Assembly: GCF_036507355.1 (NCBI RefSeq)
Contig: NZ_AP027877.1
Source of the DNA: Escherichia coli
GTDB taxonomy: Bacteria > Pseudomonadota > Gammaproteobacteria > Enterobacterales > Enterobacteriaceae
Reading direction: 5' to 3' (one strand)
DNA: 64,000 nt
The notes below the pieces were generated by a model. It worked only from the letters and a program-made list of their open reading frames with translations. It was not told the origin of the DNA and ran no database searches. Within the stretch, counting starts at the first letter, position 1, and every line of letters starts with the position of its first letter. Below, piece after piece: positions 15,339-62,867 of the stretch. A program made the translations under genes and the position numbers.

Positions 15339-16018
<680 letters not shown>

Positions 16019-44069: not shown

Positions 44070-44075
44070 TCTCCC

Positions 44076-44447
44076 TTATCCACGAGGCGCAAAAACGGCG
44101 GCGGCTTCTTGCGCCCTTTTCAGGCACTCCTTACACACCGATTTTTCTGGCGCTTCCTCACCCTCATCGTTGTTATCATTCTGATCGGACGATGCATTAC
44201 TATCATTTTGCTCAGCCGCTAAACTTTTATCATCTGCCAGCGCTTTCAGAACCGCCGGTTGCAGCGTCGGCACCGGCGTTCCCGGACTACCGCCGCTATT
44301 GAGATTGATTTTCGGCCCGACGATGTCCACGCTCCCTGAATGGATGACCACAAACGAGCCGCCCACCTTCAGGCTTATCCGGCTGCTGCTCTCCAGCACC
44401 ACATCGCCCTCCACCTTTAACCACGCCACCGCAGTCAATGGCATCAC
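44076..44447 (-). pseudogene. vgrG: vgrG 3'-terminal stub (123 aa)
   Basis: ..KVEGDVVLESSSRISLKVGGSFVVIHSGSVDIVGPKINLNSGGSPGTPVPTLQPAVL.. aligns to the C-terminus of the vgrG at 47531..49237; shared DNA segment 44366..44402 = 47916..47952. Confidence 0.75.
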
Positions 44448-44652
44448 CGGTTCTGGCGGTAGGTTTATCGTCGATAAAGGCGAAAGAGGTGTTTCCGGCT
44501 CTTAAGAAATATTTACGCACATGCACCAGCATTACAGAAAATAAAACCTGCGATACATTTTAATCAATAAGGTTGCTTTACCAAGCTTCCATCGATATTG
44601 ATGGAAAATTCATTAGACCTAATATGAACAGAATGTTGCTCATCATCTTTAT

Positions 44653-45339
44653 CTAATATTTGATTAACAAAAAAAACGTATTTTTATCAAATTCATAATT
44701 ATCACATCCCTCTCCACTAAATGATATAGCTCTAAAATCATATTCATTACATGAGTATCTTTTCATCAAAATAGAGAGGAATGTTTCATTAATTGATTTT
44801 AATACAAACCATTTTCTCCTAACAAGTTTGTAGTTTAATGTTTTTATATGATAATTATTTAAACTGGGGAGAAATGAATGCATATCATTCAATTTTACAT
44901 CAAAATATATTTTTTTACCTGCCGTAATTTCCACCCATCGGCTCAAATTCAAATCAAGCTCAAAGGGACAAAAGCCTCCTAGATAGTCTAAGCTAATATT
45001 TCCTGATGTAATCAAGAATTCGTCATCACACAAAGCATCAAATACATCTCCATTTCCTTTTTGGAAGTTCTTTGGATAATATATTCTGGGGAGAAAATAC
45101 GATTTAGTACTACTGTTATAAAAAGTTATAGTGGCTAAAATATTTTCAGCATGTGGCTTAACCACCAATTTAACAACAACATCATTTGTTAATTCATTAC
45201 TTATATTTTCCTCTGGCGCTAAATTATGGCTAAGATAAATAATTGGTTTCCCATTGTCACTTCTTCGTTCAAAACCGAATCTGTATTTTTTTACAAAAAG
45301 ATTCTCATTATCTATTGCAATTGCAATAGATAATGGCAA
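44653..45339 (-). CDS. AT-rich hypothetical protein, candidate immunity partner of the upstream HExxH protein; start uncertain
   Basis: ORF 44653..45339 begins at TTG; an ATG with signal-like peptide MKRLAFYNLNYVVLMVFFFVFC lies upstream in another frame across T-homopolymer runs. Confidence 0.35.
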   Translation of the reverse strand: MPLSIAIAIDNENLFVKKYRFGFERRSDNGKPIIYLSHNLAPEENISNELTNDVVVKLVVKPHAENILATITFYNSSTKSYFLPRIYYPKNFQKGNGDVFDALCDDEFLITSGNISLDYLGGFCPFELDLNLSRWVEITAGKKIYFDVKLNDMHSFLPSLNNYHIKTLNYKLVRRKWFVLKSINETFLSILMKRYSCNEYDFRAISFSGEGCDNYEFDKNTFFLLIKY

Positions 45340-45512
45340 AAAACAAAGAAAAAAACCATCAGTACAACATAATTTAGATTATAGAAAGCCAACCTCTTCA
45401 TCTTATTTCCCCGTCAACTCATCAAAACATTTTTCTATCTCTTTTATTTTATCCTCTACTTTTTTTGCTAACATATTCTCATCTTGAGCTTCAATATCTT
45501 CATTATTTAATT

Positions 45513-46205
45513 TTATATAAAATATCTTTCAACATTATATGCATTCTCAAATAACTGATCTTTACGCAATGTAACCAGATCATTAGCCACTGAAACATGT
45601 TTCTCATAGCTAACTTCATCCTTATTACTTGTTGCGAACTTATTAATACCCGTATAATCCTGAGTCCACATACCACCTTTTTGATTGTCACCCCAATACC
45701 AAAATATATGGGACATTTCATGGCAAAGTGTACTTACATGAGAGTCTCTACCTGTAACCGACTGTTTTATACCATGTCTGTATTCAAAATGCGCTCCGAT
45801 ATTTACAATGTAAGGAGGATCAAGATGTGGACTAATAAAAGCAGCAAATTCATTGCAGTTCGTATAATCTTTATAGCTTTCGATCGTCAAACCATTTGCA
45901 ATCGTCATTATTCGTCTGATGCCATCCATTATGAATAGTCTCGCTTGCATTCGTTTCCCAGTATCTTCCCCAACCTTTCTGATTTTTATAATGTCCTCGC
46001 CTTTAAGGCCAAAAACTTTAATAAAATCTCGTTGTTGCTCCCCCTCCCATGACATAATATCATCTGCTCTTTTCAATAAAACCATTTTCTGTGCTTTACA
46101 AGCCTTACTCATCATTATTTTAAATTTATTTGTAATTTTTTGCGGTACTACACATACTTGCGACTCGGGTTGTGAAGTCCCACTAGTATTATTATTCCCT
46201 GCCAT
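45513..46205 (-). CDS. HExxH zinc-metallopeptidase-like protein, candidate T6SS effector (230 aa)
   Basis: ATG at 46205 preceded by GGAGGGG; motif HEMSH followed by ..WTQDYTG.. (aspzincin-like spacing); N-terminal 16 codons of track ORF 45513..46334 come from the IS600-like terminus. Confidence 0.5.
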   Translation of the reverse strand: MAGNNNTSGTSQPESQVCVVPQKITNKFKIMMSKACKAQKMVLLKRADDIMSWEGEQQRDFIKVFGLKGEDIIKIRKVGEDTGKRMQARLFIMDGIRRIMTIANGLTIESYKDYTNCNEFAAFISPHLDPPYIVNIGAHFEYRHGIKQSVTGRDSHVSTLCHEMSHIFWYWGDNQKGGMWTQDYTGINKFATSNKDEVSYEKHVSVANDLVTLRKDQLFENAYNVERYFI

Positions 46206-46349
46206 AATGCCCCTCCGGCTCAATATAAAAAGCATCCGAAAATAACAATTGGACTTTAATTTCCTGTGCTGTATCTGTATAAAAGTGAGGTAGCCTGAGT
46301 TTAACGGACACTCCTTCCTGAAATAGAATGGCATCAGAAGGAGCTAATA

Positions 46350-46652
46350 ATGAGCAGAAAAACCCAACGTTACTCTAAAGAGTTCAAAGCCGAAGCTGTC
46401 AGAACGGTTCTTGAAAATCAACTTTCGATCAGTGAAGGCGCTTCCCGATTATCTCTTCCTGAAGGCACTTTAGGACAATGGGTTACCGCCGCCAGAAAAG
46501 GGCTCGGTACTCCTGGTTCCCGCACGGTGGCTGAACTGGAATCTGAAATTCTGCAACTGCGTAAGGCGTTAAATGAAGCTCGCCTTGAGCGAGATATATT
46601 AAAAAAAGCAACAGCGTATTTTGCACAGGAGTCGCTGAAAAATACGCGTTAA
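46350..46652 (+). CDS. IS3-family transposase OrfA (IS600-like)
   Basis: MSRKTQRYSKEFKAEAVRTVLENQLSISEGASRLSLPEGTLGQWV..; HTH plus leucine zipper. Confidence 0.85.
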   Translation: MSRKTQRYSKEFKAEAVRTVLENQLSISEGASRLSLPEGTLGQWVTAARKGLGTPGSRTVAELESEILQLRKALNEARLERDILKKATAYFAQESLKNTR

Positions 46653-46687
46653 TCGAACAATGGCGACAACAATTTCCCATTGAAGCG

Positions 46688-47506
46688 ATGTGTCAGGTAT
46701 TTGGTGTATCCAGGAGCGGTTATTACAACTGGGTACAGCATGAACCCTCAGACAGAAAACAAAGTGATGAGCGGCTAAAACTGGAGATTAAGGTGGCACA
46801 TATCCGCACTCGCGAAACATATGGAACCCGGCGGCTCCAGACGGAGCTGGCAGAGAATGGCATCATCGTTGGTCGTGACCGACTGGCACGTCTTCGTAAG
46901 GAGCTAAGGCTACGCTGTAAGCAGAAACGCAAGTTCAGAGCGACTACGAACTCGAACCACAATCTGCCAGTTGCGCCAAATCTGCTGAACCAGACGTTCG
47001 CTCCTACAGCACCAAATCAGGTCTGGGTGGCGGACCTGACGTATGTTGCCACACAGGAGGGATGGTTGTACCTCGCTGGCATCAAAGATGTTTATACGTG
47101 CGAAATTGTCGGCTACGCCATGGGAGAGCGCATGACAAAAGAGCTGACAGGTAAAGCCCTGTTTATGGCGCTCAGGAGCCAGCGCCCACCTGCCGGGCTA
47201 ATCCACCACTCTGATCGAGGTTCACAGTACTGCGCATACGATTACCGGGTCATACAGGAGCAGTTTGGTCTGAAAACATCAATGTCGCGTAAAGGTAACT
47301 GTTACGACAACGCTCCGATGGAAAGCTTCTGGGGAACGCTGAAAAATGAGAGCCTGAGCCACTATCGTTTTAATAACCGGGATGAAGCCATCTCAGTAAT
47401 ACGGGAATACATTGAGATTTTCTACAATCGTCAGCGTCGTCACTCTCGTCTGGGGAATATCTCCCCGGCAGCCTTCAGGGAAAAATATCATCAGATGGCT
47501 GCTTAA
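46688..47506 (+). CDS. IS3-family transposase OrfB, DDE integrase domain (IS600-like)
   Basis: ..WVADLTYVATQEGWLYLAGIKDVYTCEIVGYAM..HHSDRGSQYCAYDY.. Confidence 0.85.
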   Translation: MCQVFGVSRSGYYNWVQHEPSDRKQSDERLKLEIKVAHIRTRETYGTRRLQTELAENGIIVGRDRLARLRKELRLRCKQKRKFRATTNSNHNLPVAPNLLNQTFAPTAPNQVWVADLTYVATQEGWLYLAGIKDVYTCEIVGYAMGERMTKELTGKALFMALRSQRPPAGLIHHSDRGSQYCAYDYRVIQEQFGLKTSMSRKGNCYDNAPMESFWGTLKNESLSHYRFNNRDEAISVIREYIEIFYNRQRRHSRLGNISPAAFREKYHQMAA

Positions 47507-47530
47507 AAAAAGAATAAATGGTAGTGTCCG

Positions 47531-49237
47531 CTATTGCCAGTACACCTCAAATATTTCTGTATATCCCTCTCTGTCTGTTTCACCACGCGTCTGTGTGCCA
47601 TCCTCAAAAAAGGCAATATACTGCGTCTCTGAATACGGTATCCCGTCATCGTCCGTAAAATGGAACTGGAGGGTATATTTTTCAGGATCATCTTCATCGT
47701 CACCGCCATCACCTCCTCCGTCACTCCCTGCGGGATTGCCACTATCCTCTCCGGAGTCATCACTGCCATCATCACTGCTCTCATCCTCCGGAGCCTCCAG
47801 CACCGCCGGCTGCATCGTCCCCACCGGTGTCCCCGCACTGCCCCCACCGTTCAGGTTTATCTTCGGCCCGGCAATATCCACTCCGCCCGGCTGAATGACG
47901 ATAAACGAGCCACCCACCTTCAGGCTTATCCGGCTGCTGCTCTCCAGCACGATATCCCCGTCCACTTTTATCCCCAGCGCGCCACTCACCTTCTCCGCCA
48001 GGTCCCCCTTCACCACCAGGCTGTGTTTCCCCTCCACCAGACTGATATGGTTCCCCGTCGTCTTATGCTCCTGCTTCCCTTCCACCGTCACTTTACGGTC
48101 GTTTCTGACGTACAGACCGTCATCGTGACTCACGCTCACCGTCCGGTCATTCGTCACCTTCAGAGTCTGGTCATTACGTACCGTGATACGCCGGTCGTTC
48201 GCCACCGTGATACTCTGGTCGTGGCCCCCCTCTTTTTTTGTACCGACCTGAACCGTCTGACCCTTCACCACCGTTATCTTCTGGTCGTTACCGATGGTTT
48301 CCGTATGGTCATGTTTTACATCCGTTGTCCGGTCGTTGAGCACCTCCGTATCCATGTTCTTCTGCGCATGGATATACACCTGCTCATTACTGGTGGCGTC
48401 TTCAAACCGCAGCTCGTTAAATCCGCTTCCTTTATAGGTTTTTGACCGTATCGTCATCTGCGTCTTCGTTCCCGGCAGGTCGCCCGGGGAGCGGTTGTCC
48501 TCATGGTACGTCCGCCCCATGATTATCGGCTGGTCCGGGTCTCCGTTCAGAAAATCAACAATCACCTCCTGGCCCACCCGCGGTATCGCCAGATTACCGA
48601 ACCCCGGCCCCGCCCACGCCTGCGATACCCGCACCCAGCATGAACTCGCCTCCGTCATCCCGTGATAACGGTCCCAGTGGAACTTCACCCGTACCCGGCC
48701 ATGTTCATCGCAGAAGATTTCCTCTCCCGCAGGCCCGGTGACAATGGCACTCTGCGGCCCGTCCACCTTCGGTTTGCTTTGCAGCCGTGGACGCCACGTC
48801 CGGTCCGCCGGTATCACCTCTAACTGATTTCCCAGCGTGGTTCCTCTCCCTTGGCTGCCGTGCAGCGCCTGCGGCTGGCTTCCTGACAGTATGCTCTGTA
48901 CCACCTGCCATTCACGGTTCAGCATCTTCTGCGGATGCCCCGTCAGCGTAAACCGCGTTCCCGGCCACAGCCTCGGCGAATTACTCTGCCCTGTGGCCTT
49001 TTCCGCATCACTGCGCAGGCTCTCCATCTGGTACAGCGTGAAATCCTTGCCGTGCTGCTCATCCTTGAACCTTCCCGGATAATCAAATATTTCATACTGC
49101 GCCAGCTGTCCGTTCAGGTTCTCACCCTGCTGCTCATACATCCCCGGCCAGTCCGGCACCTTAAACGTGTAATCCTGGCTCTGCACCGACGACGGGCGGA
49201 CATGCGCCTCATACGCTACCGCCCGGGTTTCCGGCAT
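47531..49237 (-). pseudogene. vgrG: vgrG lacking ~270 N-terminal residues; 3' end runs into the IS600-like element
   Basis: Starts within the gp27-like region (..VRPSSVQSQDYTFKVPDWPG..), contains gp5 OB-fold segment (..VDGPQSAIVTGPAGEEIFCDEHGRVRVKFHWDR..) and Asp/Glu/Gly-rich C-terminal extension; last 6 codons are IS sequence. Confidence 0.8.
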
Positions 49238-49290
49238 CCGCCATCTCCCTCATGAAAGCGTAACTCCTTACTGACACTCATTTTTTACAC

Positions 49291-49330
49291 GTACAAAAAC
49301 AACATCCTGCACGAAGGCAGGATGTTGTTG
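49291..49330 (-). terminator. Intrinsic terminator downstream of hcp
   Basis: Minus-strand caacatcctgc-cttcgtg-caggatgttg followed by TTTTTGT. Confidence 0.6.
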
Positions 49331-49338
49331 ACTCAGAT

Positions 49339-49857
49339 TTATGCTTCCAGCGGTGCACGCCAGTCATCGGCACCAGAAGTACCGGATTTGATGTGCTCCC
49401 ACTCAACCTTACGGTATGCCAGTGATACTGCGAGCAATTGCGTAAACTCACGCTGTGCAGGGTCCTGGCAGTGCGGCATGTGCAGGTTCATGTCCACAAT
49501 CGTCGCGTCAGTAAGACGTGTGGTGAAGTAGTGCTCCTGCTTGCCTTCAACTGAAGTACGCCACCAGTGCAGCTCCACTTTCGGCAGCATTTCACCGGAG
49601 GCCAGCGCGTTGTACAGCAGCGGAACGGCTTTGTTCAGCGCCACGGTGAAAATGAACGGTTTGTGCGCGCGCTGCCCGGAAGGTTGACCAGACTGTGGAT
49701 CGGTTGGAACAGTAACGTTATGCAGAAACTCCTGCACCAGCATTTCATCTTCGTGTCCCTGCACGTAGATATTGCCGACAGAATCTGCGGTGAAAGCACC
49801 GGCAGTGATGTTCCCCTGGGTCTGACCTGTAATTGAAATGTAACATGGGGTTGGCAT
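49339..49857 (-). CDS. hcp: T6SS tube protein Hcp (172 aa)
   Basis: MPTPCYISITGQTQGNITAGAFTADSVGNIYVQGHEDEMLV..HKPFIFTVALNKAVPLLYNAL.. Confidence 0.9.
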   Translation of the reverse strand: MPTPCYISITGQTQGNITAGAFTADSVGNIYVQGHEDEMLVQEFLHNVTVPTDPQSGQPSGQRAHKPFIFTVALNKAVPLLYNALASGEMLPKVELHWWRTSVEGKQEHYFTTRLTDATIVDMNLHMPHCQDPAQREFTQLLAVSLAYRKVEWEHIKSGTSGADDWRAPLEA

Positions 49858-50559
49858 TTATGAACTCCTTGTGAAATTATCAACTGCTGTTTTACGAACA
49901 ACCCGTCGTTAATCCCCGACGGGTTAGAGTGTGATGCGGCTCACATCAGGAACCACACCCTTTTCTTTATTCGAGTTACAGGCACACGTAATTAGCACCT
50001 ACTGAAAAACTCTTTTATGGTGTTTAAATATATTTTTAGTCAATTTCAGAACACGGTCACATAAGCTAAAAATATATCAACTTCAACAGCAGAATTATCC
50101 ATAACGTATCTTCCCCCCCATAAAAATCCACAGCCGCGTCAAAAACAAATTATTACGACACTTACTCCGCCATCGTTCCAGCACGCAATTAAGATATTCC
50201 TTAAAGGAATTCCTTATGATGTATTGCCAGCAATTAATTAATTGATAAAACCATACATAAAACTTATTAATCAATTTAATAAATGCATATAAATCAATAT
50301 ATTATTGTATTTGATTGACCGTAAAATCATATTCATCAAGTCTATAAATACCAAAATCTATTTCACTATAATATATTAGCAAGGAAGAATGCATCTCTTT
50401 CTAAAATATAAATAGTTCTTTTAATATTTTATTTCATGAGTAGAATACTGATCACAACAGAAGGAAGGTTACATTATCTAACTGCCACTGAAACGGTATC
50501 TTCGGTATTTTTATGCAGTACGAAAATGCTGTGCTCATGGTCTGAACGGGAACATTTTT

Positions 50560-50772: not shown

Positions 50773-51057
50773 GTGCCCATGAGCGGTAAGCGTTATCCCG
50801 AAGAGTTTAAAATTGAAGCAGTCAAACAGGTTGTTGATCGCGGTTATTCTGTTGCCAGCGTTGCAACACGTCTCGATATCACCACCCACAGCCTTTACGC
50901 CTGGATAAAGAAGTACGGTCCGGATTCTTCCGCTAATAAAGAACAGTCAGATGCTCAGGCCGAGATCCGCCGTCTCCAGAAAGAGCTGAAGCGGGTTACC
51001 GACGAACGGGACATATTAAAAAAAGCCGCGGCGTACTTCGCAAAGCTGTCCGACTGA
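50773..51057 (+). CDS. IS3-family transposase OrfA
   Basis: MPMSGKRYPEEFKIEAVKQVVDRGYSVASVATRLDITTHSLYAWIKKY.. Confidence 0.85.
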   Translation: MPMSGKRYPEEFKIEAVKQVVDRGYSVASVATRLDITTHSLYAWIKKYGPDSSANKEQSDAQAEIRRLQKELKRVTDERDILKKAAAYFAKLSD

Positions 51058-51113
51058 GGTACGCCTTTATCCGTGACAACACCTGTTGCTGGCCTGTTCG
51101 CCTGCTCTGTCGG

Positions 51114-51926
51114 GTGCTGGATGTTCATCCCAGTGGTTTTTACGCCTGGCTTCAGCAGCCGCATTCACAACGCCATCAGGCAGACCTGAGGCTGACAGGG
51201 CAGATTAAACAGTTCTGGCTGGAATCGGGATGCGTCTATGGTTATCGCAAAATCCATCTGGATCTGCGGGACAGCGGGCAACAGTGCGGAGTGAACAGAG
51301 TCTGGCGACTGATGAAACGTGTCGGGATAAAGGCTCAGGTCGGATACCGGAGCCCGCGGGCACGTAAAGGCGAGGCCAGTATCGTGTCGCCCAACAGGCT
51401 CCAGCGACAGTTCAATCCGGATGCTCCGGATAAGCGTTGGGTAACGGACATAACCTACATCAGGACCCACGAAGGCTGGCTGTATCTTGCCGTGGTTGTT
51501 GATCTGTTCTCACGCAAAATTATCGGCTGGTCCATGCAATCCCGGATGACAAAGGACATTGTCCTGAACGCACTGCTGATGGCTGTATGGCGCCGTAATC
51601 CCCAAAAACAGGTGCTGGTTCATTCGGATCAGGGCAGTCAGTACACAAGCCATGAGTGGCAGTCGTTCCTGAAATCACACGGCCTGGATGGCAGCATGAG
51701 CCGTCGCGGTAACTGCCATGATAATGCGGTTGCAGAAAGCTTTTTCCAGTTGTTGAAACGCGAACGGATAAAGAAAAAGATCTACGGAACGCGGGAAGAA
51801 GCCCGCAGCGATATTTTTGATTACATCGAAATGTTTTATAACAGTAAGCGTCGGCATGGTTCCAGCGATCAGATGTCACCGACAGAATATGAAAACCAGT
51901 ATTATCAACGGCTCGGAAGTGTCTAG
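51114..51926 (+). CDS. IS3-family transposase OrfB (DDE integrase domain)
   Basis: ..WVTDITYIRTHEGWLYLAVVVDLFSRKIIGWSM..VHSDQGSQYTSHEW.. Confidence 0.85.
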   Translation: MLDVHPSGFYAWLQQPHSQRHQADLRLTGQIKQFWLESGCVYGYRKIHLDLRDSGQQCGVNRVWRLMKRVGIKAQVGYRSPRARKGEASIVSPNRLQRQFNPDAPDKRWVTDITYIRTHEGWLYLAVVVDLFSRKIIGWSMQSRMTKDIVLNALLMAVWRRNPQKQVLVHSDQGSQYTSHEWQSFLKSHGLDGSMSRRGNCHDNAVAESFFQLLKRERIKKKIYGTREEARSDIFDYIEMFYNSKRRHGSSDQMSPTEYENQYYQRLGSV

Positions 51927-52198
51927 ATTATCCGTGGCGATTCAGTTGTCAAGCAGATAGAAGCCATCTAGGTCAGGGGGAATGACTAGGAATTACTCCC
52001 CAAGGGTAGCGTACGTCTACACACATCAAATTACCTCCCGGACAGGGACATAGTAGAAATATTGTGTATTGCAATTATGGATACTGTCATCGTCTAGGTA
52101 GTTCGCCAGCTTTATAGTGTTTTACTGAATTTGGCCACCTGAGCAGAGGTGATATGGGAGAGTGATTTTCATACGCTCTCGTATGGTTTCCGGCCTGA

Positions 52199-52426
52199 AT
52201 GCAGTGTTCATCACGCGATCCGCACGGTGAAATTACAGCTCACAGACTGTGGGGAAACCCGGGGCGCTGGGTGATTGAAGACGACCTGTCCAGTTACTTC
52301 GACACCGTACACCATCGACTGCTGATGAAAGCCGTACGCCGCAGGATCAGTGACGCACGTTTTATGGCCCTCCTGTGGAAAACCATCAAGGCGGGCACAT
52401 CGAGGTCGGTCTCTTTCGGGCGGTAA
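52199..52426 (+). pseudogene. Reverse transcriptase fragment (ykfC-like)
   Basis: ..VIEDDLSSYFDTVHHRLLMKAVRRRISDARFMALLWKTIKAG.. resembles RT finger/palm motifs; no continuation. Confidence 0.45.
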
Positions 52427-52429
52427 GTG

Positions 52430-52684
52430 ACGCCGCGCCAGCTGACGTTGCCACGAATATTCGCCAATACGCTGCCAGACTTCGGTATGAAAGCGCAGAA
52501 TCAATGACCGGTAATCGGCCATGCTTTCGCGGTACGGCAGCGTCAACGTAAAGCAGAACACCACGAGTCGTGGGTAATGGTCAACGGCCTGTTGCAGAAA
52601 GGCTCGTGTATTTGTCGTGTCAGTCGAATTGCCGGAGACGATGGAGGGAGAATAAGGATTCATAACGGCGCTCTCAATGAACAC
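52430..52684 (-). pseudogene. Inovirus Gp2-family protein, N-terminal fragment
   Basis: ..AFLQQAVDHYPRLVVFCFTLTLPYRE.. resembles the N-terminus of Gp2-family proteins of CP4-type islands; remainder of the track ORF is antisense to the RT fragment. Confidence 0.4.
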
Positions 52685-52888
52685 TGGTGTGATGGACAGG
52701 AGTGTGATGTTGCAGGTGTGCTGCTCATCATCGATCCCATATCATTACGTTCGCTCACTAAGACGGAGTGCCTTTCGTCATTTAACCTGTCACAATCCAA
52801 ATAATTTCAGACAGATATTATCTCCGTGAATCCCCCGCCTCCTTAACCGGAGCGCGGGGATTTTTCTTTTTCACGTTGAGAACTCTGT

Positions 52889-53771
52889 ATGACTAAACCT
52901 CACGGCCTTCAGGCCCTTGAACAACCGCTGGCGTCGCTTCCCGATGCGCTTCGCCAGCTTATTCTTGAACGTATTCAGAATCTCACCCACTATGAGCCGG
53001 TGATTGGTATCATGGGCAAAAGCGGTGCCGGTAAGTCTTCGCTCTGTAACGAACTCTTCCGGGGTGAGGTCTCCCCCGTCAGTGATGTGAACGCCTGTAC
53101 CCGTGAAGTGCTGCGCTTCCGGCTGCGCAGCGGGCGTCACAGTCTGGTGATTGTTGATTTACCGGGTGTGGGAGAAAACGGGCAACGGGACCATGAATAC
53201 CGTGCCCTGTACCGGCGTATGCTGCCGGAACTGGACCTGGTTCTGTGGGTCATTAAGTCCGATGACCGGGCGCTGTCGGTGGACGAGCAGTTCTGGCGCG
53301 GTGTGATGCAGCCTTACCAGCAGCAGGTGGTGTTCGTGATTAACCAGGCCGACAAAATAGAACCCAGCCATGAATGGGATACCCGTTCTGGTACTCCCTC
53401 AGCACAGCAACAGAAAAATCTTCAGGAAAAGCAGGTTGCCATTACCACGATGTTTAAGCCACATCACCCGGTCTGCGTGGTATCCGCATGTACCGGATGG
53501 GGCGTGGAGGATATGGTAGCAACCATGATGCGCTGTCTGCCGGACCGCGCCACCAGCCCAGTAGCGACACAGTTGCACGGGAGGCTCTGCACGGAGCCGG
53601 TAAAGTCGCAGGCCCGTGACGGCTTCGGTGAGGCGGTGGGGCGGTGGGGCGGGTGTTCGATACGGCAGAATCATCGTTATTCCTGCCTGCGCCGCTGAAG
53701 ACGGTGATACGTACCGTGCGTGATGCTGTGGTGTCTGTAGCCCGCGCGGTCTGGGACTGGATCTTCTTCTG
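52889..53771 (+). pseudogene. YeeP/YfjP-family GTPase with 3' frameshift from an 8-bp tandem duplication
   Basis: P-loop GKSGAGKSSLCN; cggtgggg repeated in tandem at 53634..53649; removing one copy restores ..GEAVGRVFDTAESSLFLPAPLKTVIRTVRDAVVSVARAVWDWIFF. Confidence 0.65.
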
Positions 53772-54032
53772 AATGAGTAAAAGGTCATCAGGACTGTAGT
53801 GAATGACTCTGTTTATTCACCGCCTGGTAGATGATTATTTCCAGGCAGACATAACCTGTCCTGACCAGCAAAAGATACCACCAGTCATAAGCGCGTCACC
53901 ACTGCCGACGTTGCATCCACACAGTCTTCTTGCACCAGGCGTTTCGCTACGTATGACGGACACAACCTGTCAGTCCCATCCTTTACAGTAATACCTTCTT
54001 TATTAATCAATTACCCAACACGGAGATAATAC

Positions 54033-54736
54033 ATGTCTCAGGCTGAGCGTCGTTATGACCGCCTGTCTGTCCGGCTTTCTCTAATTATCAGCCGTCTGCT
54101 CGCGGGTGAAACGCTGAATATGCGCAAACTGGCCGCTGAGTTTGGCATCTCGGAGCGTACCCTACATCGTGATTTCCGCGAGCGTCTGATTTATCTCGAC
54201 CTCGAATATCAGGATGGCTGCTGCCGTCTGCTGACCGGAGGCCGTCAGGAGATTCGGGAGGAGGCCGCAATGCAGTTTGCCCGTCAGTCAGGCACTGGCG
54301 CGTTGTTTCCTGATATGGACCACCATCTGGTCAATTCATTGCTGAGCAGCAAGGACTCCTCGCCATGTCTTATCTGGCATCCGTAACGTCTTCCCGCCCA
54401 GGCATCTTCACACGACTGGTCAGGGCGGTATCAGAAAACAGGAAGGTAACCCTGCTGGCTGACGGATGCCGTTGCGACAACCTTGCCCCCTACCGACTGA
54501 TTTTCAGCACCGGTGGGTGGTTTCTGGTGGGGGAACACCTTGCCCGGATAACCGTTTTTGCACTGCACACAGTTCACTCCGTGACGTTTCACGCGGAAAC
54601 CTTCACACCAGACGGACATTTCACCCGCATTCTGTCACACCCGGATTTTTTACAGGCGTTACCTCATTTTCATGTTTTTCATTCACTACTCGCTGACGGC
54701 AGTTACGGGCAGCTTACCCATAAGGAACAGGCATGA
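54033..54736 (+). pseudogene. YfjR-like HTH/WYL transcriptional regulator split into two overlapping ORFs by a frameshift
   Basis: ORF 54033..54386 carries the HTH (..[20 protein letters not shown]..); ORF 54365..54736 carries a WYL-like segment (..APYRLIFSTGGWFLVG..); combined length ~233 codons. Confidence 0.55.
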
Positions 54737-55368
54737 AATTACTCACCTCGGCGGCGCTGGCCGCCAGCCTCTGCATTACCTCTGTGACCCCGGCCATCGC
54801 AGAAAATATCGTGGGTTCAGTTAAGGCCTGGCAGTACATGCAGGCTGATGGCTGGAAATCCGCTGATGGATACGATGATAACCGCATGCATAACGAGTTA
54901 TACCAGGCGGTCGTTCTTGATAATTATCCCTGGACGAATCACTTTCTGCTTCGTAGCAGAGGCGGTAGTTCGCTTTATCTGGCAGACAAGAAAGCTAAAA
55001 CTGTCAAATACATCGATATAAAACCTCGCGACGAGTATCCGTTACATCTTCAGGTTGTTTATCGGGGAATTGATGACGGGAGTGGCTGTTATTTCGCCAT
55101 TGTAGATGACCGAATGGCAAACTACTGGACGATTGTTGAAGATCGTCTTCTCTATCAGGACCCACCTGTTGAAGACGTCGATGCGAAAGCAGCTGAGCTT
55201 AGAAAACAACTCACGCCGGAAGTCGTGATGATGGTGAAGGATAATTGTATTGACAAACAGCAGCAGGCTGCACTGGCAGCTAAGCGTTCTGAAAAAGATC
55301 GAGAGTTGCAACAGTGGGTGGCGAAACAGAGCCTGGCGGAATTATGTCGTCGTACCGGCAACTGCTGA
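54733..55368 (+). CDS. Secreted protein of unknown function (211 aa)
   Basis: Signal peptide MKLLTSAALAASLCITSVTPAIA. Confidence 0.5.
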   Translation: MKLLTSAALAASLCITSVTPAIAENIVGSVKAWQYMQADGWKSADGYDDNRMHNELYQAVVLDNYPWTNHFLLRSRGGSSLYLADKKAKTVKYIDIKPRDEYPLHLQVVYRGIDDGSGCYFAIVDDRMANYWTIVEDRLLYQDPPVEDVDAKAAELRKQLTPEVVMMVKDNCIDKQQQAALAAKRSEKDRELQQWVAKQSLAELCRRTGNC

Positions 55369-55403
55369 CCCGCTGAAAACAACCATAACAGGGAGTTTTT
55401 AAC

Positions 55404-55856
55404 ATGAATATATTTACTACGCGTCTGACGACCTCTCTGGTGGTCATCGGCACTCTGCTGCTCTCCGGCTGCGACAGCAAGGAAGATGCAGGCGTGAAGA
55501 CGATTGCCCGATTTAAGGACCTGACTCCGCCGCCCTTCAGCGACGTGGTGGCGCATAAATCCGATATCGAGCAGGAATGGGTAAAAAAGGATGCCTTCGG
55601 CACACCGCTATACACGGTAATGAAAACTCGCCAGTCGCCGGAAGGCTGTGAGTCCGGCAGTTATTACTACATTGCTGATATGCAGCAGAAAACGGTGCAG
55701 CCGCTGATAGCCGCCCTGTGTCTCGCGGACAATATTACTCTGAGCTTCCGGATCGAGACCGACAGCTACACGGGTGAGAAATCGGTGGTGTATTCGCACG
55801 ATGGCAAGGAAATGGGGAAACTCTTGCTGCCGGATAACCAGGAGAACCATCCATGA
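55404..55856 (+). CDS. YfjS/YafY-family lipoprotein (150 aa)
   Basis: Lipobox LLLSGC; C-terminal half parallels the fragment at 12980..13235. Confidence 0.65.
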   Translation: MNIFTTRLTTSLVVIGTLLLSGCDSKEDAGVKTIARFKDLTPPPFSDVVAHKSDIEQEWVKKDAFGTPLYTVMKTRQSPEGCESGSYYYIADMQQKTVQPLIAALCLADNITLSFRIETDSYTGEKSVVYSHDGKEMGKLLLPDNQENHP

Positions 55857-56305
55857 AGAAGCTGAAAGGTGTTATCTCTGCTGCAGTCCTGAGTCTGTAT
55901 TTGCTGACACCGGCCCATGCTGATGGCGGTTTTCAGGGTGCCATCAAAGGCGGCATTCCGGCCTACACCCGCGATGTAAAACACAACAACCCCTTCTGGT
56001 GTAACCAGTACAAACTGGTGAGAAAGATGTGTGAAGTGGTTTCGCAATCGGAAAATGGGCGCGTTGCCATTGTCAGAATGGTCCCCACCGACTGGAAATG
56101 CCCCAACGGTATCTGGGGTGTGGTTGACCGTTCTAATGGTGACGCCATGGAGTTGGTCCCGACGGCGAAAATGTCCCTGGAGCAGTACTGCAGCAAGGCA
56201 TTCAGTGCAGGTTTTGTCAAACCACAGAACAGGAAATCACTGGCCGACGTCGTGATGTACTACAACGGCAAGCCAGTCGGTTCTTTCGAATACATTGAAG
56301 AGTGA
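55853..56305 (+). CDS. Secreted Cys-containing protein of unknown function (150 aa)
   Basis: Signal peptide MKKLKGVISAAVLSLYLLTPAHA. Confidence 0.55.
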   Translation: MKKLKGVISAAVLSLYLLTPAHADGGFQGAIKGGIPAYTRDVKHNNPFWCNQYKLVRKMCEVVSQSENGRVAIVRMVPTDWKCPNGIWGVVDRSNGDAMELVPTAKMSLEQYCSKAFSAGFVKPQNRKSLADVVMYYNGKPVGSFEYIEE

Positions 56306-56367
56306 ACTCCCCGCCTCAGGGAGAAGCTTCCCGTATTCATTTAACACATTAAAAATAAAGGAAAAGA

Positions 56368-56910
56368 ATGAACTGGCATTATGAGAAAAATGGCGTGCGT
56401 CACGACAATGTGACCGAAGCCGACATAACCGAACGTATTCAGCGCGGGGAGCTGAATGCCTCAACGCTGGTATGGCAACAGGGCATGACGGAATGGCAGC
56501 CGCTGTCAGCCACGCCGCTGGCAGATGTCCTGAAACAATGTGCGGTTCCCCCCGCGCTGCCCGGCAATCGTATCCCCGGAAGCATGGTCTGGACGCTGGC
56601 CTTTGCGCCCCTGATTGGGTATGCCCTGGAGATGTGGACGGCCGGGCTGAGCGGAATGGAATTTGAAGAGGCGTATGCCGCCGTGACGGAGGGGCAATAC
56701 TGGTTTATCACACTGATACTGAATATTGCGCTGGGGTATCTGGATGAACGACGGCTCCGTAAATCCGGCGTTGATACCGCCGCCTTTGGCTGGCTGGCCT
56801 GGCTGGTTCCGTTTTATCTGTGGCGTCGGGCAAAAGCCCTCGGACAGAAACCGGCTTACTTCTGGGTCTGGCTGGTCACGCTGACAGTGACAGTCCTGGG
56901 CGCAGGATAA
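56368..56910 (+). CDS. GYF/DUF4339-like N-terminal domain fused to a multi-pass membrane region (180 aa)
   Basis: ..LVWQQGMTEWQPLSATPLADVL.. followed by hydrophobic helices. Confidence 0.45.
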   Translation: MNWHYEKNGVRHDNVTEADITERIQRGELNASTLVWQQGMTEWQPLSATPLADVLKQCAVPPALPGNRIPGSMVWTLAFAPLIGYALEMWTAGLSGMEFEEAYAAVTEGQYWFITLILNIALGYLDERRLRKSGVDTAAFGWLAWLVPFYLWRRAKALGQKPAYFWVWLVTLTVTVLGAG

Positions 56911-56969
56911 CCGGCATCAGCGCTGTCCGGCCCGGATGAGCAGGCAAGTTAAATCAAGGAACAATATCA

Positions 56970-57800
56970 ATGAACAACATGCTGAAAAGTGTTATTTCCG
57001 CTGCGACCCTGAGTCTGTGTCTGCTGACACCCGCTCATGCAGAAGAGCAACGTTATATCAGTATTCCCAGCGTCTTCGGGGAAGGTAAGCACGTGTCCCG
57101 TTCAGACCATTACAGCTACATACCGACCATTACCCTGCTGGAGAACCTGCAGCGTGAAGGATTCCAGCCGTTCTTTGCCTGCCAGACCCGCGTCAGGGAC
57201 CAGAGCCGCCGTGAGCATACGAAACATATGCTGCGCCTGCGTCGCTCCGGGCAGATAACCGGTCAGCAGGTGCCGGAAATTATCCTGCTCAATTCGCATG
57301 ACGGTTCGTCCAGTTACCAGATGTTGCCGGGGTATTTCCGTGCCATCTGTACCAACGGTCTCGTCTGCGGGCAGTCATTTGGCGAGGTGCGAGTGCCACA
57401 CCGGGGAAATGTCGTGGAGAAAGTGATTGAAGGCGCTTACGAAGTCCTCGGTGTGTTCGACCGGGTGGAAGAGAAGCGTGATGCGATGCAGTCGCTTTTA
57501 CTCCCGCCACCGGCACAACAGGCTTTTGCCAGAGCCGCGCTGACGTACCGCTTCGGGGAAGAGCACCAGCCGGTGACGGAAGCGCAGATACTGACACCCC
57601 GCCGCTATGAAGACCGTCAGGATGACCTGTGGTCAGTTTTTAATCGGTGCCAGGAGAACCTGCTCAAAGGGGGGCTGCCAGGACGTACTGCCAAAGGCAA
57701 ACGCAGCCATACCCGCGCGGTGAAAGGCATCGACGGCGACGTTAAGCTCAACCGGGCACTCTGGGTGATGGCGGAAAAACTGCAGCAGGCGCTGAGCTGA
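56970..57800 (+). CDS. DUF932-family protein (YfjQ/YafZ-like) with an atypical signal-peptide-like N-terminus
   Basis: ..EIILLNSHDGSSSYQMLPGYFRAICTNGLVCGQSFGEVRVPHRGNVVEKVIEGAYEV..; first ~25 codons nearly duplicate the 5' end of the gene at 55853. Confidence 0.6.
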   Translation: MNNMLKSVISAATLSLCLLTPAHAEEQRYISIPSVFGEGKHVSRSDHYSYIPTITLLENLQREGFQPFFACQTRVRDQSRREHTKHMLRLRRSGQITGQQVPEIILLNSHDGSSSYQMLPGYFRAICTNGLVCGQSFGEVRVPHRGNVVEKVIEGAYEVLGVFDRVEEKRDAMQSLLLPPPAQQAFARAALTYRFGEEHQPVTEAQILTPRRYEDRQDDLWSVFNRCQENLLKGGLPGRTAKGKRSHTRAVKGIDGDVKLNRALWVMAEKLQQALS

Positions 57801-58067
57801 TGCCACCACTGCCTGATAACGCCCACCCGGCCGCCATTAATCCTGCCCCCTGGAGAACAACCCCGGCAGCCGCCCCATCTCCGATGACGACCTGTGCGCC
57901 TGTGCTCACACCTTCTTTATCGTCCCGGTGAACTCAGTTTCTGCCGGTTAAGTCTCGCTGACGGCCACTGGCCCTCACACTGTGATGAAGACGGCTATGC
58001 GCAGTCCTGTCCGTCACTCCGATTGAACCGGTATCCCCAACACAATGAATGAAAGAGGAAAAACAAC

Positions 58068-58538
58068 ATGACCGATAACACTCTGCCACTGTTCACACCC
58101 GCAGCAGATGCTCCTGCTGCGGCTCAGCATCAGATTATCGCTATACCGGTAACCGATGAGAACCGCATCAGCTTCTGGCCGCAGCACTTTGGCAGCATTC
58201 CGCAGTGGATAATCCTTGAGCCGACCATCTTCGCGTGGATGGACCGCTTCTGCACGGACTACAGCGGCGGCATCTGGAATTTTTACACGCTGAGCAACGG
58301 CGGCGCGTTTATGGCCCCGGAAGTGGAGAACGATGAACTCTGGTCGCTGTTTAACACGATGAACGGCAACGGCGGTGACATGAGTGCCGAAGCTGCAGGG
58401 ATTGCGGTCTGTCTGATGGCTTTCAGCCACCATGCCTGCCGTACCGAATGCGACGCCATGACGGAGCACTACTACCGCCTGCGGGACTACGCGCTCAACC
58501 ACGCGGAATGCAACGCCATCATGCACATCATCGACTGA
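58068..58538 (+). CDS. Antirestriction protein, ArdB/KlcA-like (156 aa)
   Basis: ..[51 protein letters not shown].. Confidence 0.8.
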
Positions 58539-58549
58539 GGTCAGCCGCT

Positions 58550-59029
58550 ATGGAGCAACAGTTACCGTTGTTTGCCCGTGAATTAGCCCCTGCCGACCAG
58601 CAGACAGTCAGGAAAGCCTTATCTCTGCTGGAGTGCCAGCTACGTGAAACCGGCGCGTCATTTACTTCCAGCCATGCTGTCCGCGACTGGCTGCGCCTGC
58701 AGCTCGCGTCACTGGAGCGGGAAGAGTTTACCGCGCTCTTTCTCGATAACCAGCATCGCCTGATAGCCCACGAAACGCTATTTACCGGCACCATCAACCA
58801 TACGCAGGTCCATCCCCGCGAAGTGGTGAAGGCCGGTCTGAAGCATAACTGCGCCGCTGTCATTGTCGCCCATAGCCATCCCTCCGGGGAGGCTGAACCC
58901 AGCAAGGCAGACCGTCAGGTCACTACGCGTATTCAGCAGGCGCTGGACCTGGTTGATATCCGCTTGCTGGACCACCTGGTGGTCGGCGGCATGGAGATCA
59001 CCTCGTTTGCAGATCGTGGCTGGCTGTAG
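58550..59029 (+). CDS. RadC-like JAB-domain protein
   Basis: Start [14 protein letters not shown] inside ORF 58448..59029; ..[27 protein letters not shown].. Confidence 0.8.
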
Positions 59030-59049
59030 CACAACAGGAGAATAACCGA

Positions 59050-59271
59050 ATGAAAATTATCAGTAAACGTCAGGCTATGGCGATATACCGCCAGCATCCG
59101 CAGTCCCGGTTGTTTCCCTTCTGCACGGGTAAATACAAATGGTCTGGCAGCATCTGCCACTACGCTGGGCAGGAGGTTCAGGATATCAGCGGTGTGCTCG
59201 CGGTCTTCGCTGAACGCCGTCAGAACCGCAACGGCCCCTATGTCGTATTACGCAGCGTCACGCTGAATTAA
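59050..59271 (+). CDS. DUF987 protein
   Basis: MKIISKRQAMAIYRQHPQSRLFPFCTGKYKWSGSICHYAGQEV.. Confidence 0.7.
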   Translation: MKIISKRQAMAIYRQHPQSRLFPFCTGKYKWSGSICHYAGQEVQDISGVLAVFAERRQNRNGPYVVLRSVTLN

Positions 59272-59294
59272 CACACGTTTAAGGAAGGCTAAAA

Positions 59295-59654
59295 TTGTCG
59301 AATAAAATACCGACAGTAAACCACGATATCACTGAACCCTGGTGGGGGCTTAAACGCAGTATCACGCCCTGTTTTGGCGCACGGCTGGTGCAGTCGGGCA
59401 ACTGTCTGCATTATCTCGCTGACCGGGCCAGCATCACCGGACAGTTCAGCGACGGGGATTTACGGCATCTCGACCAGGCATTTCCACTGCTGCTCAAACA
59501 GCTTGAACTGATGCTCACCAGCGGTGAACTCACTCCCCGCCATCAGCACTGTGTCACGCTCTATGCAAAAGGGCTGACCTGCGAGGCCGACTCCCTCGGC
59601 TCGCATGGTTACGTATACCTGGCGATTTATCCGACACCAGCGGCAACCGCGTAA
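59295..59654 (+). CDS. Type IV TA antitoxin, CbeA/YeeU family (TTG start)
   Basis: ..[79 protein letters not shown]; SD aaggaagg upstream. Confidence 0.8.
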
Positions 59655-59704
59655 AGCTTCTTACTACTTACCCTCGTTTTACCCATCAACAAAGAGATCC
59701 CACT

Positions 59705-60082
59705 ATGCAAACCCAACCACTATCCTCAACGCAGGAGGCTACATCACGCCCGTCACCGGTGGAGATCTGGCAACGGCTTCTGAGCCACCTGTTGGATCGT
59801 CACTACGGTCTGACGCTTAACGACACGCCGTTTGGCAACGACGGTGTGATTCAGGAGCATATCGACGCCGGTATATCACTGTGCGACGCCGTGAATTTTA
59901 TTGTGGAGAAGTACGATCTGGTGCGCATCGATCGTCACGGTTTCAGTACAGAAACACAGTTGCCGCGTCACACCAGTATCGATATTCTCCGCGCCCGCAA
60001 AGCCACCGGGTTGATGACTCGCAACGATTACAGAACGGTGACCGACATCACCACCGGTAAATACCGTGGGGGGCATCGATGA
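59705..60082 (+). CDS. Type IV TA toxin, CbtA/YeeV family (125 aa)
   Basis: ..[64 protein letters not shown].. Confidence 0.8.
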
Positions 60083-60570
60083 AGTTATCCCTGACGGTAG
60101 AAGCCGACGCCATCAACGTTCTGGCCCTGAATGCGGGCCGGATCGCTGTGGATATTGACGGCATTGAACTGGCTGCGCTGATCGATGTGGTCTGTGATAA
60201 CGGTTATTCCCTTCGCGTTGCTGACTCCCCCGGAAAGCTGGTCGTTGAAGATCCGCTTCCACCCGTCGCCCGCGTTAATGGCATCCAGTGCAGTACCGCG
60301 CATATTACGGAGAAAGACAACGCTCTGCTGTTTACTCTTTCACACCAGAATGAAGACTTTGGTGAGTCGGAATGGATTAGTTACACCGGGTCGGGTTATC
60401 TGCTCCACCTGGGTGCCTGGTCATTTCCGGTCTTACGCCTCAAACGTCTCGGTCTGTCGAAAGCCTGCCGTCGGTTAGTAGTGACGCTTATCCGTCGCTA
60501 CGCCGTTGGCATTGTTCATCTGGATGCCTTTGGCGAAGTGCTGCCGGGCTTTGACATTTTCGACTGGTAA
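60079..60570 (+). CDS. YeeW-like protein (DUF5983-type) downstream of cbtA
   Basis: Position and size typical of yeeW homologues in KpLE2/CP4-type modules. Confidence 0.5.
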
Positions 60571-60601
60571 ATCTTCTCACCAATAAGCACAGGATATTCT
60601 C

Positions 60602-60805
60602 ATGGAGAAATTAACCACCGAAGTGGCTCTCAACGTTCTGATTGACTGGCTGCAGGACAACATCGATTGTGGGAACATGATTATTTTCGACAACGACGAA
60701 GACAACACCGATTCAGCAGTGCTGTTGCCCTGGATTGAACGTGCGCGTCAGGACGTTCGCGATCTCCGTCATCTTCAACTTCTGCGACAGACCAGTACAG
60801 ATTAA
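60602..60805 (+). CDS. Small acidic protein (67 aa), DUF957-like by position
   Basis: ORF with ATG start; conserved slot after yeeW in such islands. Confidence 0.4.
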   Translation: MEKLTTEVALNVLIDWLQDNIDCGNMIIFDNDEDNTDSAVLLPWIERARQDVRDLRHLQLLRQTSTD

Positions 60806-60885
60806 CCACCGAACAGTACTCATCACTTACTCATAATCGCCAGCCCTCACCGGCTGGCGCTTTGCTTTATATAAGGAACGAAATA

Positions 60886-61730
60886 ATGTCAGAGCTTACT
60901 CTCACCAAACCCGAAGTATTAACCGGCCACACCGACGTGATTTGCTCCACCAGCATTGAGCGTATTGTCACGGGACGTAATGCCGCGCTGGCGCAGATTG
61001 AAGTGCTCATGCAACAACTGGACGATGTTTCGATGCTGACCCGCAGTCTCGGGGGAAAAACCGCGCTGGACTGGGCTATGAAGCAGGATTTCCGTTGCGG
61101 CTGCTGGTTGATGGAGAAACCAGAAACGGCGATGAAAGCTATTACCCGTAATCTCGATCGCAGCATATGGCGAGACCTGATGAAGAAGTCGGGCATGATT
61201 TCGCTCATGGATGCTCAGGCTCGTGACCAGTGGTACAACAGTCTGGAAAAGGATGACATTCCTGCCGTCAGCGAAGAGAATATTCTCAGCACGTTTGAGC
61301 AACTGCATCTGAACAAGGGCGAGGTGTTTGAGCGCGGAGTGATAAATGTGTTCAAAGGTTTAAGCTGGAATTTTAAGACAAATTCCCCTGCAAGTTTGGG
61401 GCGAAAATTATCGTTACCGGACTAGTCAAGTTCGATCGGTGGGGATTTGGGCTTAACTGGGGCTGGCAGCGTGACCGGTTAGCTGACCTTGAGCGTATGC
61501 TGATGCTTCTTGATGGCAAACCGGTTCCCTACAACCGCGCTGACGTTACCCGTCGTCTCAGCGATCATATCCATGAGAACAGGCACAGTAACCGTTACGA
61601 GGATGAGATGTTTGTGATTAAGTATTTTCAGAAGGGAACTGCACACATCGTATTCAAGCGACCTGAGTTGATTGATAAGCTGAACAACATCATCGCCCGA
61701 CACTATCCGGGAGCACTGCCAGCGAGATGA
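60886..61730 (+). pseudogene. DUF4942-like protein gene interrupted by a frameshift near 61400..61440
   Basis: ORF 60862..61425 (start MSELTLTKPE after SD aaggaa) and ORF 61497..61730 are joined by an alternative frame (..IIVTGLVKFDRWGFGLNWGWQRDRLADLERMLMLLDGK..). Confidence 0.45.
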
Positions 61731-61862
61731 GAGGTGAGTGAGTTGTCCGAAGCTATCTCAGGTGAGCCAGTGCAAGCCGGACGGCAATGGCATACTGGAT
61801 GGCATACCGAAAAAAACAAGCATAAAAAAGGCCATGCTAATCAATAGCATGGCCTCGAATAG

Positions 61863-61939
61863 TGGCGGAACGGACGGGACTCGAACCCGCGACCCCCTGC
61901 GTGACAGGCAGGTATTCTAACCGACTGAACTACCGCTCC
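61863..61939 (-). tRNA. aspV: tRNA-Asp (anticodon GUC)
   Basis: Reverse complement reads GGAGCGGTAGTTCAGTCGGTTAGAATACCTGCCTGTCACGCAGGGGGTCGCGGGTTCGAGTCCCGTCCGTTCCGCCA. Confidence 0.9.
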
Positions 61940-62071
61940 GCGTTGTGTTCCGTTGGGAACGAGGCGAATATTACGGATTGCCTCACCCTTCGTCAATGGT
62001 TTTTCTCATCTTTTGAATCGTTTGCTGCAAAAATCGCCCAAGTCGCTATTTTTAGCGCCTTTTACAGGTAT

Positions 62072-62803
62072 TTATGCCCGCCAGAGGCAGCTTCCGCCTT
62101 TCTTCTGCACCAGATCGAGACGGGCTTCATGTGCTGCAAGCTCTTCATCTGTCGCAAAAACAACGCGTAACTTACTTGCCTGACGTACAATGCGCTGAAT
62201 TGTTGCTTCACCTTGTTGCTGCTGTGTCTCTCCTTCCATCGCAAAAGCCATCGACGTTTGACCACCGGTCATCGCCAGATAAACTTCCGCAAGGATCTGG
62301 GCATCGAGTAATGCCCCGTGCAGCGTTCGTTTACTGTTATCTATTTCGTAGCGGGCACATAACGCATCGAGGCTGTTGCGTTTACCGGGAAACATTTTCC
62401 TCGCCACCGCAAGGCTATCGGTGACCTTACAGAAGGTGTTGGTCTTCGGAATATCACGCTTAAGCAACGAGAACTCGTAGTCCATAAAGCCGATATCGAA
62501 CGCTGCGTTATGGATCACCAACTCCGCGCCGCGGATATAGTCCATGAACTCATCGGCTACTTCGGCAAACGTGGGCTTATCGAGCAAAAACTCATCGGCA
62601 ATACCGTGTACGCCAAAGGCTTCCGGATCCACCAGCCGATCGGGTTTGAGATAAACATGGAAGTTATTGCCCGTCAGGCGACGGTTCACCACTTCAACGG
62701 CACCAATCTCAATGATCTTGTGGCCTTCATAGTGCGCACCAATCTGGTTCATACCGGTGGTTTCGGTATCGAGAACGATCTGGCGTGTAATTGCAGTGCT
62801 CAT
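62072..62803 (-). CDS. dnaQ: DNA polymerase III epsilon subunit (243 aa)
   Basis: Start [20 protein letters not shown] inside ORF 62072..62812. Confidence 0.95.
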
Positions 62804-62867
62804 AGCGGTCATTTATGTCAGACTTGTCGTTTTACAGTTCGATTCAATTACAGGAAGTCTACCAGAG

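Follow-up and report, generated by a model that had tools for sequence, protein, structure and literature searches.

The closest described relatives of the gene discussed here are YfjP and YkfA of Escherichia coli K-12, putative GTP-binding proteins that are encoded on the islands CP4-57 and CP4-6, respectively. They share their P-loop region with a gene in the window (a term that we use for the complete stretch of 64,000 nucleotides of E. coli DNA that was analyzed), and they end in the same C-terminal ...VVSVARAVWD(F/W)xFF tail as the intact allele of that gene. The likeness extends to the genomic context: the islands of YfjP and YkfA are likewise linked to a tRNA or tmRNA gene, and the neighbors that they have in common with the window gene comprise DUF932, a YfjR-type WYL regulator, antirestriction, RadC and DUF987 genes and a YeeU/CbtA-type toxin-antitoxin pair. 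The family also has a known decayed member, K-12 yeeP, which is annotated as a pseudogene and resides in a cryptic island (CP4-44) that has kept its CbeA/CbtA pair. A literature search for functional studies of yfjP, ykfA or yeeP returned none.

The locus described here nevertheless differs from these K-12 copies. YfjP and YkfA are intact proteins of 287 aa, whereas the window carries the 291-aa allele of a horizontally acquired, aspV-associated island, disrupted by a +8 frameshift that is private to it. The lesion in yeeP is a truncation of the 5' end, which has left the C-terminal 141 codons, whereas in the window gene it is the opposite end that has been lost, and the lesion is a small tandem duplication. 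We consider it very probable that a recent slippage event, private to the lineage, turned the island GTPase gene into what is probably a pseudogene, in the midst of a stepwise decay of the island.

The 8-bp tandem duplication and the reading frame of the GTPase gene

The first-pass annotation had described an 8-bp tandem duplication at 53634-53649 that would frameshift a YeeP-like GTPase gene, and the sequence as well as the 8-bp gap in alignments with intact alleles bear this out. Read directly from the window, 53634-53649 (plus strand) is CGGTGGGGCGGTGGGG, i.e. two perfect copies of CGGTGGGG, of which one unit represents the insertion relative to the intact allele. The period-8 register is perfect for the start positions 53632-53637, so that the perfect tract runs from 53632 to 53652, and the register of the inserted 8 bp is ambiguous within these limits. 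Tandem Repeats Finder extended the array to 53626-53652 on the same strand and reported 3.4 copies of CGGTGGGG at 94% match, in the arrangement CGGTGAGG CGGTGGGG CGGTGGGG CGG. The intact allele reads CGGTGAGGCGGTGGGGCGG at this site, and already contains 2.4 copies of the imperfect 8-mer (CGGTGAGG CGGTGGGG CGG); alternatively, its repeat can be described as a GGCGG that recurs at 8-bp spacing. In itself, a perfect tandem 8-mer is not a rare feature: one was observed in the 64 kb, and shuffling the window 100 times with a first-order Markov model gave 0.87 +/- 0.91. The significance of the one described here has to come solely from comparison with other sequences.

That comparison was straightforward. 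A megablast search of 52889-53772 against 5,426 complete E. coli genomes yielded 17 records at 99% identity or more, and the best of these matched at 876 of 884 positions, the 8-bp gap being the sole difference. In these genomes the annotation gives an intact "GTPase family protein" (WP_001743066.1). Indeed, removal of the 8 bp from the window sequence gives an 876-bp gene of 291 codons that is base-for-base identical to the gene of WP_001743066.1, which is intact in many E. coli. In a three-way alignment of the same interval between the window, NCTC9008 and RCAD0514, the 8 bp were again the only difference of the window. The claim that loss of one repeat copy would restore an in-frame C-terminus ending in ..RAVWDWIFF was thus confirmed by BLAST, by alignment and by tblastn, and in fact the restored protein is an exact 291-aa allele.

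The consequence for the reading frame is clear. When the intact protein was used in a tblastn search of the window, residues 1-252 and residues 249-291 were found in two different frames, each segment at 100% identity. The frameshifted ORF (52889-53698, plus strand) encodes 269 aa, of which the first 252 are native and include the whole G domain, whereas the last 17, WGGCSIRQNHRYSCLRR, are read out of frame up to a TGA stop. The frame breaks after Arg252, at 87% of the gene length, and the last 39 native residues (253-291) have been replaced by the 17 aberrant ones. The displaced 3' end of the gene lies at 53641-53772 (plus strand), in the -1 frame relative to the main ORF, and encodes the native residues 249-291 with the tail ...VVSVARAVWDWIFF; the ORF list accordingly gives a second ORF at 53644-53772, in the -1 frame relative to 52889-53698, with the terminus ...RAVWDWIFF. 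In the window copy, the conserved amphipathic and aromatic tail is no longer in frame with the G domain, and the gene is therefore to be regarded as a disrupted member of the YeeP/YfjP/YkfA-type family. The assignment to this family is in line with the earlier one, as the protein is 53-54% identical to YfjP, YkfA and the YeeP remnant of K-12; with YfjP and YkfA the similarity is colinear over the full length once the 8 bp are removed. A 250-aa protein (P0096, 100% identical) was considered as a case of truncation at the same site and was rejected, because the gene call is shortened at its N-terminus and the tail is intact.

The GTPase family and its C-terminal tail

The G domain (residues 38 to 220, approximately), which is of the TRAFAC type and has a P-loop, is unaffected by the frameshift. 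The MMR_HSR1 model scored 59 bits at residues 39-152, with a cut-off of 21.9, in the intact and truncated product alike, and the Era and Der models matched the G domain only, up to about residue 220, again without a difference between the two proteins. Moreover, G43, G48, K49 and S50 are invariant among 45 relatives. A screen with PADLOC gave a partial match of the G domain to LeoBC only, and an assignment of the GTPase to a defense system was rejected.

As the G domain remains in frame, an effect of the frameshift on function has to be judged from the conservation of the tail. By sequence comparison, the tail is the best-conserved segment of the family outside the nucleotide-binding motifs. 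The stretch VVSVARAVWD is identical among paralogues that are only 53% identical overall, and the aromatic, hydrophobic motif at the C-terminus (WDWIFF in the native protein) has been kept by many relatives, down to about 30% identity. The helical hydrophobic moment reaches its maximum for the whole protein, 0.70, at residues 266-285. An AlphaFold2 model of the GTPase, built from 45 sequences, had a mean pLDDT of 93.9 and showed confident helices at residues 236-258, 265-284 and 286-290. According to this model, the frameshift cuts the first of these helices in the middle and deletes the helices between 265 and 290. The family has been kept at about 291 aa across the Enterobacterales; an intact example is found in NCTC9008 (L002, 3958-4833).

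The predicted fold, with the G domain placed between N- and C-terminal helices, is similar to that of the IRG (Irga6/IIGP1), GIMAP, Toc34 and EHD membrane-associated GTPases. In a Foldseek search of the PDB, the nearest folds were those of Irga6/IIGP1, EHD2, Era, Toc34 and GIMAP. With a TM-score of 0.57 on the query for Irga6, and only 12-24% identity to the structural neighbors, this similarity may give a hint of what the tail does but does not classify the protein. The terminal helix of the window GTPase is amphipathic and the structural neighbors often have membrane-binding helical extensions; by analogy, the lost tail may have a role in docking to the membrane or to a partner.

Considering that the tail is the best-conserved segment and that it is built into the helical domain in the model, the truncated protein is most likely non-functional or mislocalized, and a loss of function is probable. 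An unlikely alternative is that the duplication is real and neutral or modifying, such that the 269-aa G-domain product is made and active while the tail is dispensable or merely tunes the localization. The identical G-domain family matches of the truncated product would fit this alternative, as would the late position of the frameshift (at the said 87% of the gene length). It is, however, difficult to reconcile with a tail that forms the most conserved non-catalytic segment among the paralogues and in many distant relatives, with the conservation of the 291-aa frame across genera, and with the model, in which the lost helices belong to a confidently predicted helical domain and the break would fall in the middle of helix 236-258. 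A probable loss of function consequently remains our preferred reading.

The aspV-associated island and the order of its lesions

The GTPase gene heads a tRNA-linked module, the chromosomal anchor of which is the gene for tRNA-Asp, aspV (61863-61939, minus strand), with dnaQ and rnhA beyond. The first part of the module comprises the genes for the GTPase, the WYL regulator, a hypothetical protein, a YfjS/YafY lipoprotein, DUF4339, IrmA, DUF905 and DUF932; toward aspV it continues with antirestriction, RadC, DUF987, YeeU, CbtA, DUF5983, DUF957 and DUF4942. The gene order agrees with that of the islands of RCAD0514, NCTC9008 and 720632 and with that of CP4-57 and CP4-6 of K-12.

The first-pass annotation had proposed that this module is decaying while its toxin-antitoxin core remains intact, and had listed a split YfjR-like regulator and a frameshifted DUF4942-like gene in support. 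Each of these observations stands. The HTH-WYL regulator (54033-54736, plus strand) is split into ORFs of 117 and 123 aa by a 10-bp deletion (GGCATCCGGG) at 54375/54376, which is flanked by 8-bp direct repeats GGCATCCG and separates the HTH from the WYL half; in its intact form the protein is 53% identical to YfjR. The DUF4942 gene (60886-61730, plus strand) carries a 1-bp deletion near 61378, which it has in common with NCTC9008 and RCAD0514, whereas the gene of strain 720632 is intact at 852 bp. The genes of the toxin-antitoxin pair, on the other hand, are of full length: the YeeU/CbeA-type antitoxin gene (59295-59654, plus strand) encodes 119 aa with 76% identity to K-12 CbeA, and the CbtA-type toxin gene (59705-60082, plus strand) encodes 125 aa with 69% identity to K-12 CbtA.

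Two observations go beyond the earlier description: the lesions differ in age, and the module contains an additional deletion of 870 bp. As a result of the latter, at 57063/57064, irmA has lost the greater part of its length, the DUF905 gene is gone and the DUF932 gene lacks its 5' end, and the deletion has produced an in-frame ORF (56970-57800, plus strand) in which the signal peptide of IrmA is fused to DUF932. The microhomology at the junction is only 1-3 bp. The deletion is private in comparison with NCTC9008, RCAD0514 and 7 public contigs, and a look-up of the exact 276-aa fusion product returned no record. For the 117-aa product of the WYL deletion allele, by comparison, 23 or more public contigs are on record. 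Seven of these WYL-deletion contigs were read, and in each of them the 8-mer is in single copy, the GTPase gene encodes 291 aa and the 870 bp are present. From these differences in sharing (DUF4942 with NCTC9008 and RCAD0514, WYL with at least 23 contigs, the other two private) the order of events can be reconstructed: the 1-bp deletion in the DUF4942 gene was followed by the 10-bp deletion in the WYL gene and then by the private 8-bp duplication in the GTPase gene and the private 870-bp deletion.

The WYL gene of RCAD0514 has a lesion of its own, in the form of a 23-bp tandem duplication between GGAGGCCG repeats (around 10340-10390 of L001). The WYL/YfjR-like regulator has thus been struck independently by repeat-mediated indels in two lineages, and its loss seems recurrent.

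Over its 9.9 kb (51932-61862), the island has just 6 SNPs relative to that of NCTC9008 (99.94% identity) but three indels, namely the 8 bp gained in the GTPase gene, the 10 bp lost from the WYL gene and the 870 bp lost from the IrmA/DUF932 region. So few SNPs beside three indels speak for a recent origin of the duplication. The flank that carries aspV, dnaQ, rnhA and yafS (61863-64000) shows 34 SNPs in 2.1 kb versus the same genome (98.4%). Given this contrast in identity, the island is much younger than the backbone, which suggests that it has spread horizontally or has been recombined in recent times.

Other mobile or decayed elements are found elsewhere in the window. To the left of the module lie the remains of a type VI secretion island (approximately 40900-49860), with genes for Hcp (49342-49857, minus strand), for the Tle1 chaperone Tla1 (43302-44069, minus strand) and for a VgrG (47534-49237, minus strand) whose similarity to the VgrG models is confined to their C-terminal part. 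An IS3/IS600-like element (at about 46.3-47.5 kb) adjoins the VgrG gene, and a second IS3-family element (50773-51926) and a fragment of a group II intron reverse transcriptase (52149-52426) are located between the type VI remnant and the GTPase gene. The match of an ORF at 38564-39073 (minus strand) to PFL_4695, a protein family of integrating conjugative elements (E = 2e-35), hints at a remnant of such an element between yafV and the type VI secretion remnant. Finally, a second and partial antirestriction-RadC-YeeU-CbtA module is present at 14206-15903, adjoining thrW (tRNA-Thr, 16400-16475). This copy shares 67% identity with 58146-59931, but a paralogue of the GTPase gene to go with it is absent from the window.

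Distribution of the duplication and alternative explanations

The duplicated form was looked for in several collections. In a search of the 5,426 complete E. coli genomes with a 66-mer, the full-coverage matches listed all span 58 nt instead of 66 (the matches examined included a sample of 60 spread across the whole ranking), and the top match did not exceed 87.9%, which is the value expected from an 8-bp gap. Exact scans for the junction of the duplicated form (GGCGGTGGGGCGGTGGGGCGGG) did not find it in the GTDB species representatives, nor in metagenome contigs, in which the single-copy junction, as a positive control, was found 6 times. A look-up of the exact 269-aa product returned no record. 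The 7 closest public contigs carry the WYL-deletion allele of the island at a distance of 1-6 mismatches from the window; each of them has a single copy and the 291-aa gene. The same length was found for 115 of the 120 best-scoring homologues listed, a set that spans E. coli, Salmonella, Klebsiella, Citrobacter, Enterobacter, Serratia and Yersinia. The comparison with yeeP and yfjP alleles that had been proposed as a check is in line with this: the tail is in frame in the K-12 paralogues YfjP, YkfA and YeeP, and the 291-aa alleles do not have the extra 8 bp. Judged by this distribution, the extra copy is the derived state, and the duplication is private to this lineage and most likely recent.

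A private allele in a single genome raises the question of an artefact of sequencing or assembly, in which case the genome would in truth have the 2.4-unit, single-copy form and the additional 8 bp would stem from assembly or consensus calling. Indeed, the duplicated allele was seen in this one sequence only, among all collections searched, which leaves some room for an error of assembly or cloning, and the site is G-rich and locally repetitive. The exact duplication of an 8-bp unit, however, is an unusual type of error; sequencing platforms mainly produce 1-bp indels in homopolymers. Moreover, all 20 of the core K-12 orthologues in the window are of full length and free of gaps, and a neighboring indel of the same class, the 10-bp deletion in the WYL gene, is independently present in the public contigs mentioned above (23 or more). 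Private alleles are, in addition, sufficiently explained by the poor sampling of the backbone lineage. The core chromosome (16000-38000, proA to yafV) reaches a best identity of only 97.5-98.3% versus the 5,426 complete genomes, and the exact ProA protein occurs in only 12 short draft contigs, which diverge from the window just past thrW; DnaQ, by comparison, is too widespread to be informative. Among the complete E. coli genomes there was also none that matched the island together with its left flank. The backbone would thus belong to a poorly represented lineage of Escherichia or a Shigella-like one, the latter having been considered on account of the IS600-like elements and the decay. We rate an artefact as quite improbable and regard the duplication as most likely genuine.

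The short tandem array could also be thought of as a contingency locus, at which the copy number of the 8-bp repeat toggles the full-length GTPase on and off, since slippage could, in principle, also remove the additional unit of a tandem duplication exactly. Contingency loci, i.e. phase-variable simple sequence repeats, typically have long tracts and are frequently polymorphic. The array in the GTPase gene goes from just 2.4 to 3.4 copies and is imperfect, and its copy number does not vary among the full-coverage E. coli matches listed, the 6 metagenome contigs and the 7 closest contigs, which makes such a switch highly improbable. A hotspot or phase variation was rejected for the same reason, as variation in copy number was nowhere seen among the sequences examined. 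Recoding, by a programmed -1 ribosomal frameshift that would yield the full-length protein or by initiation of a separate tail ORF at the GTG of 53644, is hardly credible, because, despite a downstream frame that is indeed -1 relative to the main ORF and a GAGG 10 nt upstream of that GTG, a codon-by-codon reading of 53633-53698 showed no in-frame slippery heptamer of the type X XXY YYZ, the two-frame arrangement is conserved in no homologue (the homologues are single-frame and nearly all of 291 aa), and a tail of 42 aa that is made separately would have no link to the G domain. Programmed frameshifting was discarded for want of both a slippery site and conservation.

Discussion

The recent inactivation of the island GTPase gene by slippage is the reading that we prefer over these alternatives. 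A slipped-strand event would have added one 8-bp unit to a short, G-rich and imperfect repeat, thereby extending it from 2.4 to 3.4 copies, close to the 3' end of a GTPase gene of the YeeP/YfjP/YkfA type in the aspV-associated island. The additional 8 bp shift the frame past Arg252, leaving the Era/IRG-like G domain complete, at the expense of half of the helix 236-258 and of the C-terminal amphipathic helices (265-290), and with a gain of 17 aberrant residues. The resulting protein, being most likely non-functional or mislocalized, would make the gene a fresh pseudogene. The lesion would then represent one step in the stepwise decay of the non-essential genes of the island, whereas the toxin-antitoxin pair, which is able to favor its own retention, is still intact.

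The first-pass annotation had seen a visible mechanistic cause of the frameshift in a slipped-strand duplication, and this is supported as plausible by the imperfect 2.4-copy repeat that the intact allele already contains. The inserted 8 bp duplicate the adjoining unit exactly, the homologues are without the extra copy, and a direct repeat able to misalign was present before the event, as can be seen in the intact allele. On the basis of this signature, replication slippage is the most likely cause.

The practical implications hardly go beyond annotation. There, the gene should be termed a pseudogene, i.e. a frameshifted "GTPase family protein", and the 8-bp lesion provides a useful private marker of the lineage. 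On a small scale, it also illustrates cleanly the decay of island cargo by slippage at short direct repeats, with a toxin-antitoxin pair that persists. The more interesting by-product may be the GTPase family itself, considering its predicted IRG/GIMAP-like fold and its strongly conserved amphipathic tail. The natural allele described here happens to delete this tail, and the family may merit a study of its own. There is only a very slim chance that the array acts as a reversible switch of low frequency, or that the tail-less G domain is a selected variant. If that were true, the loss of the amphipathic helices could uncouple GTP binding from the targeting to a membrane or a partner in an IRG/GIMAP-like GTPase that is encoded next to a WYL regulator, and the truncation would alter the behavior of a defense- and toxin-rich island rather than simply inactivate a gene.

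In comparison with known systems, neither this type of event nor the gene family is new, and what is seen here is a case of ordinary pseudogenization. The duplication carries the same signature as that described for slipped-strand mispairing at short direct repeats, and there is no difference in kind. The same holds for the indels in the neighboring WYL genes, since both the 10-bp deletion and the 23-bp duplication likewise lie between direct repeats of 8 bp, as in slipped-strand mispairing.
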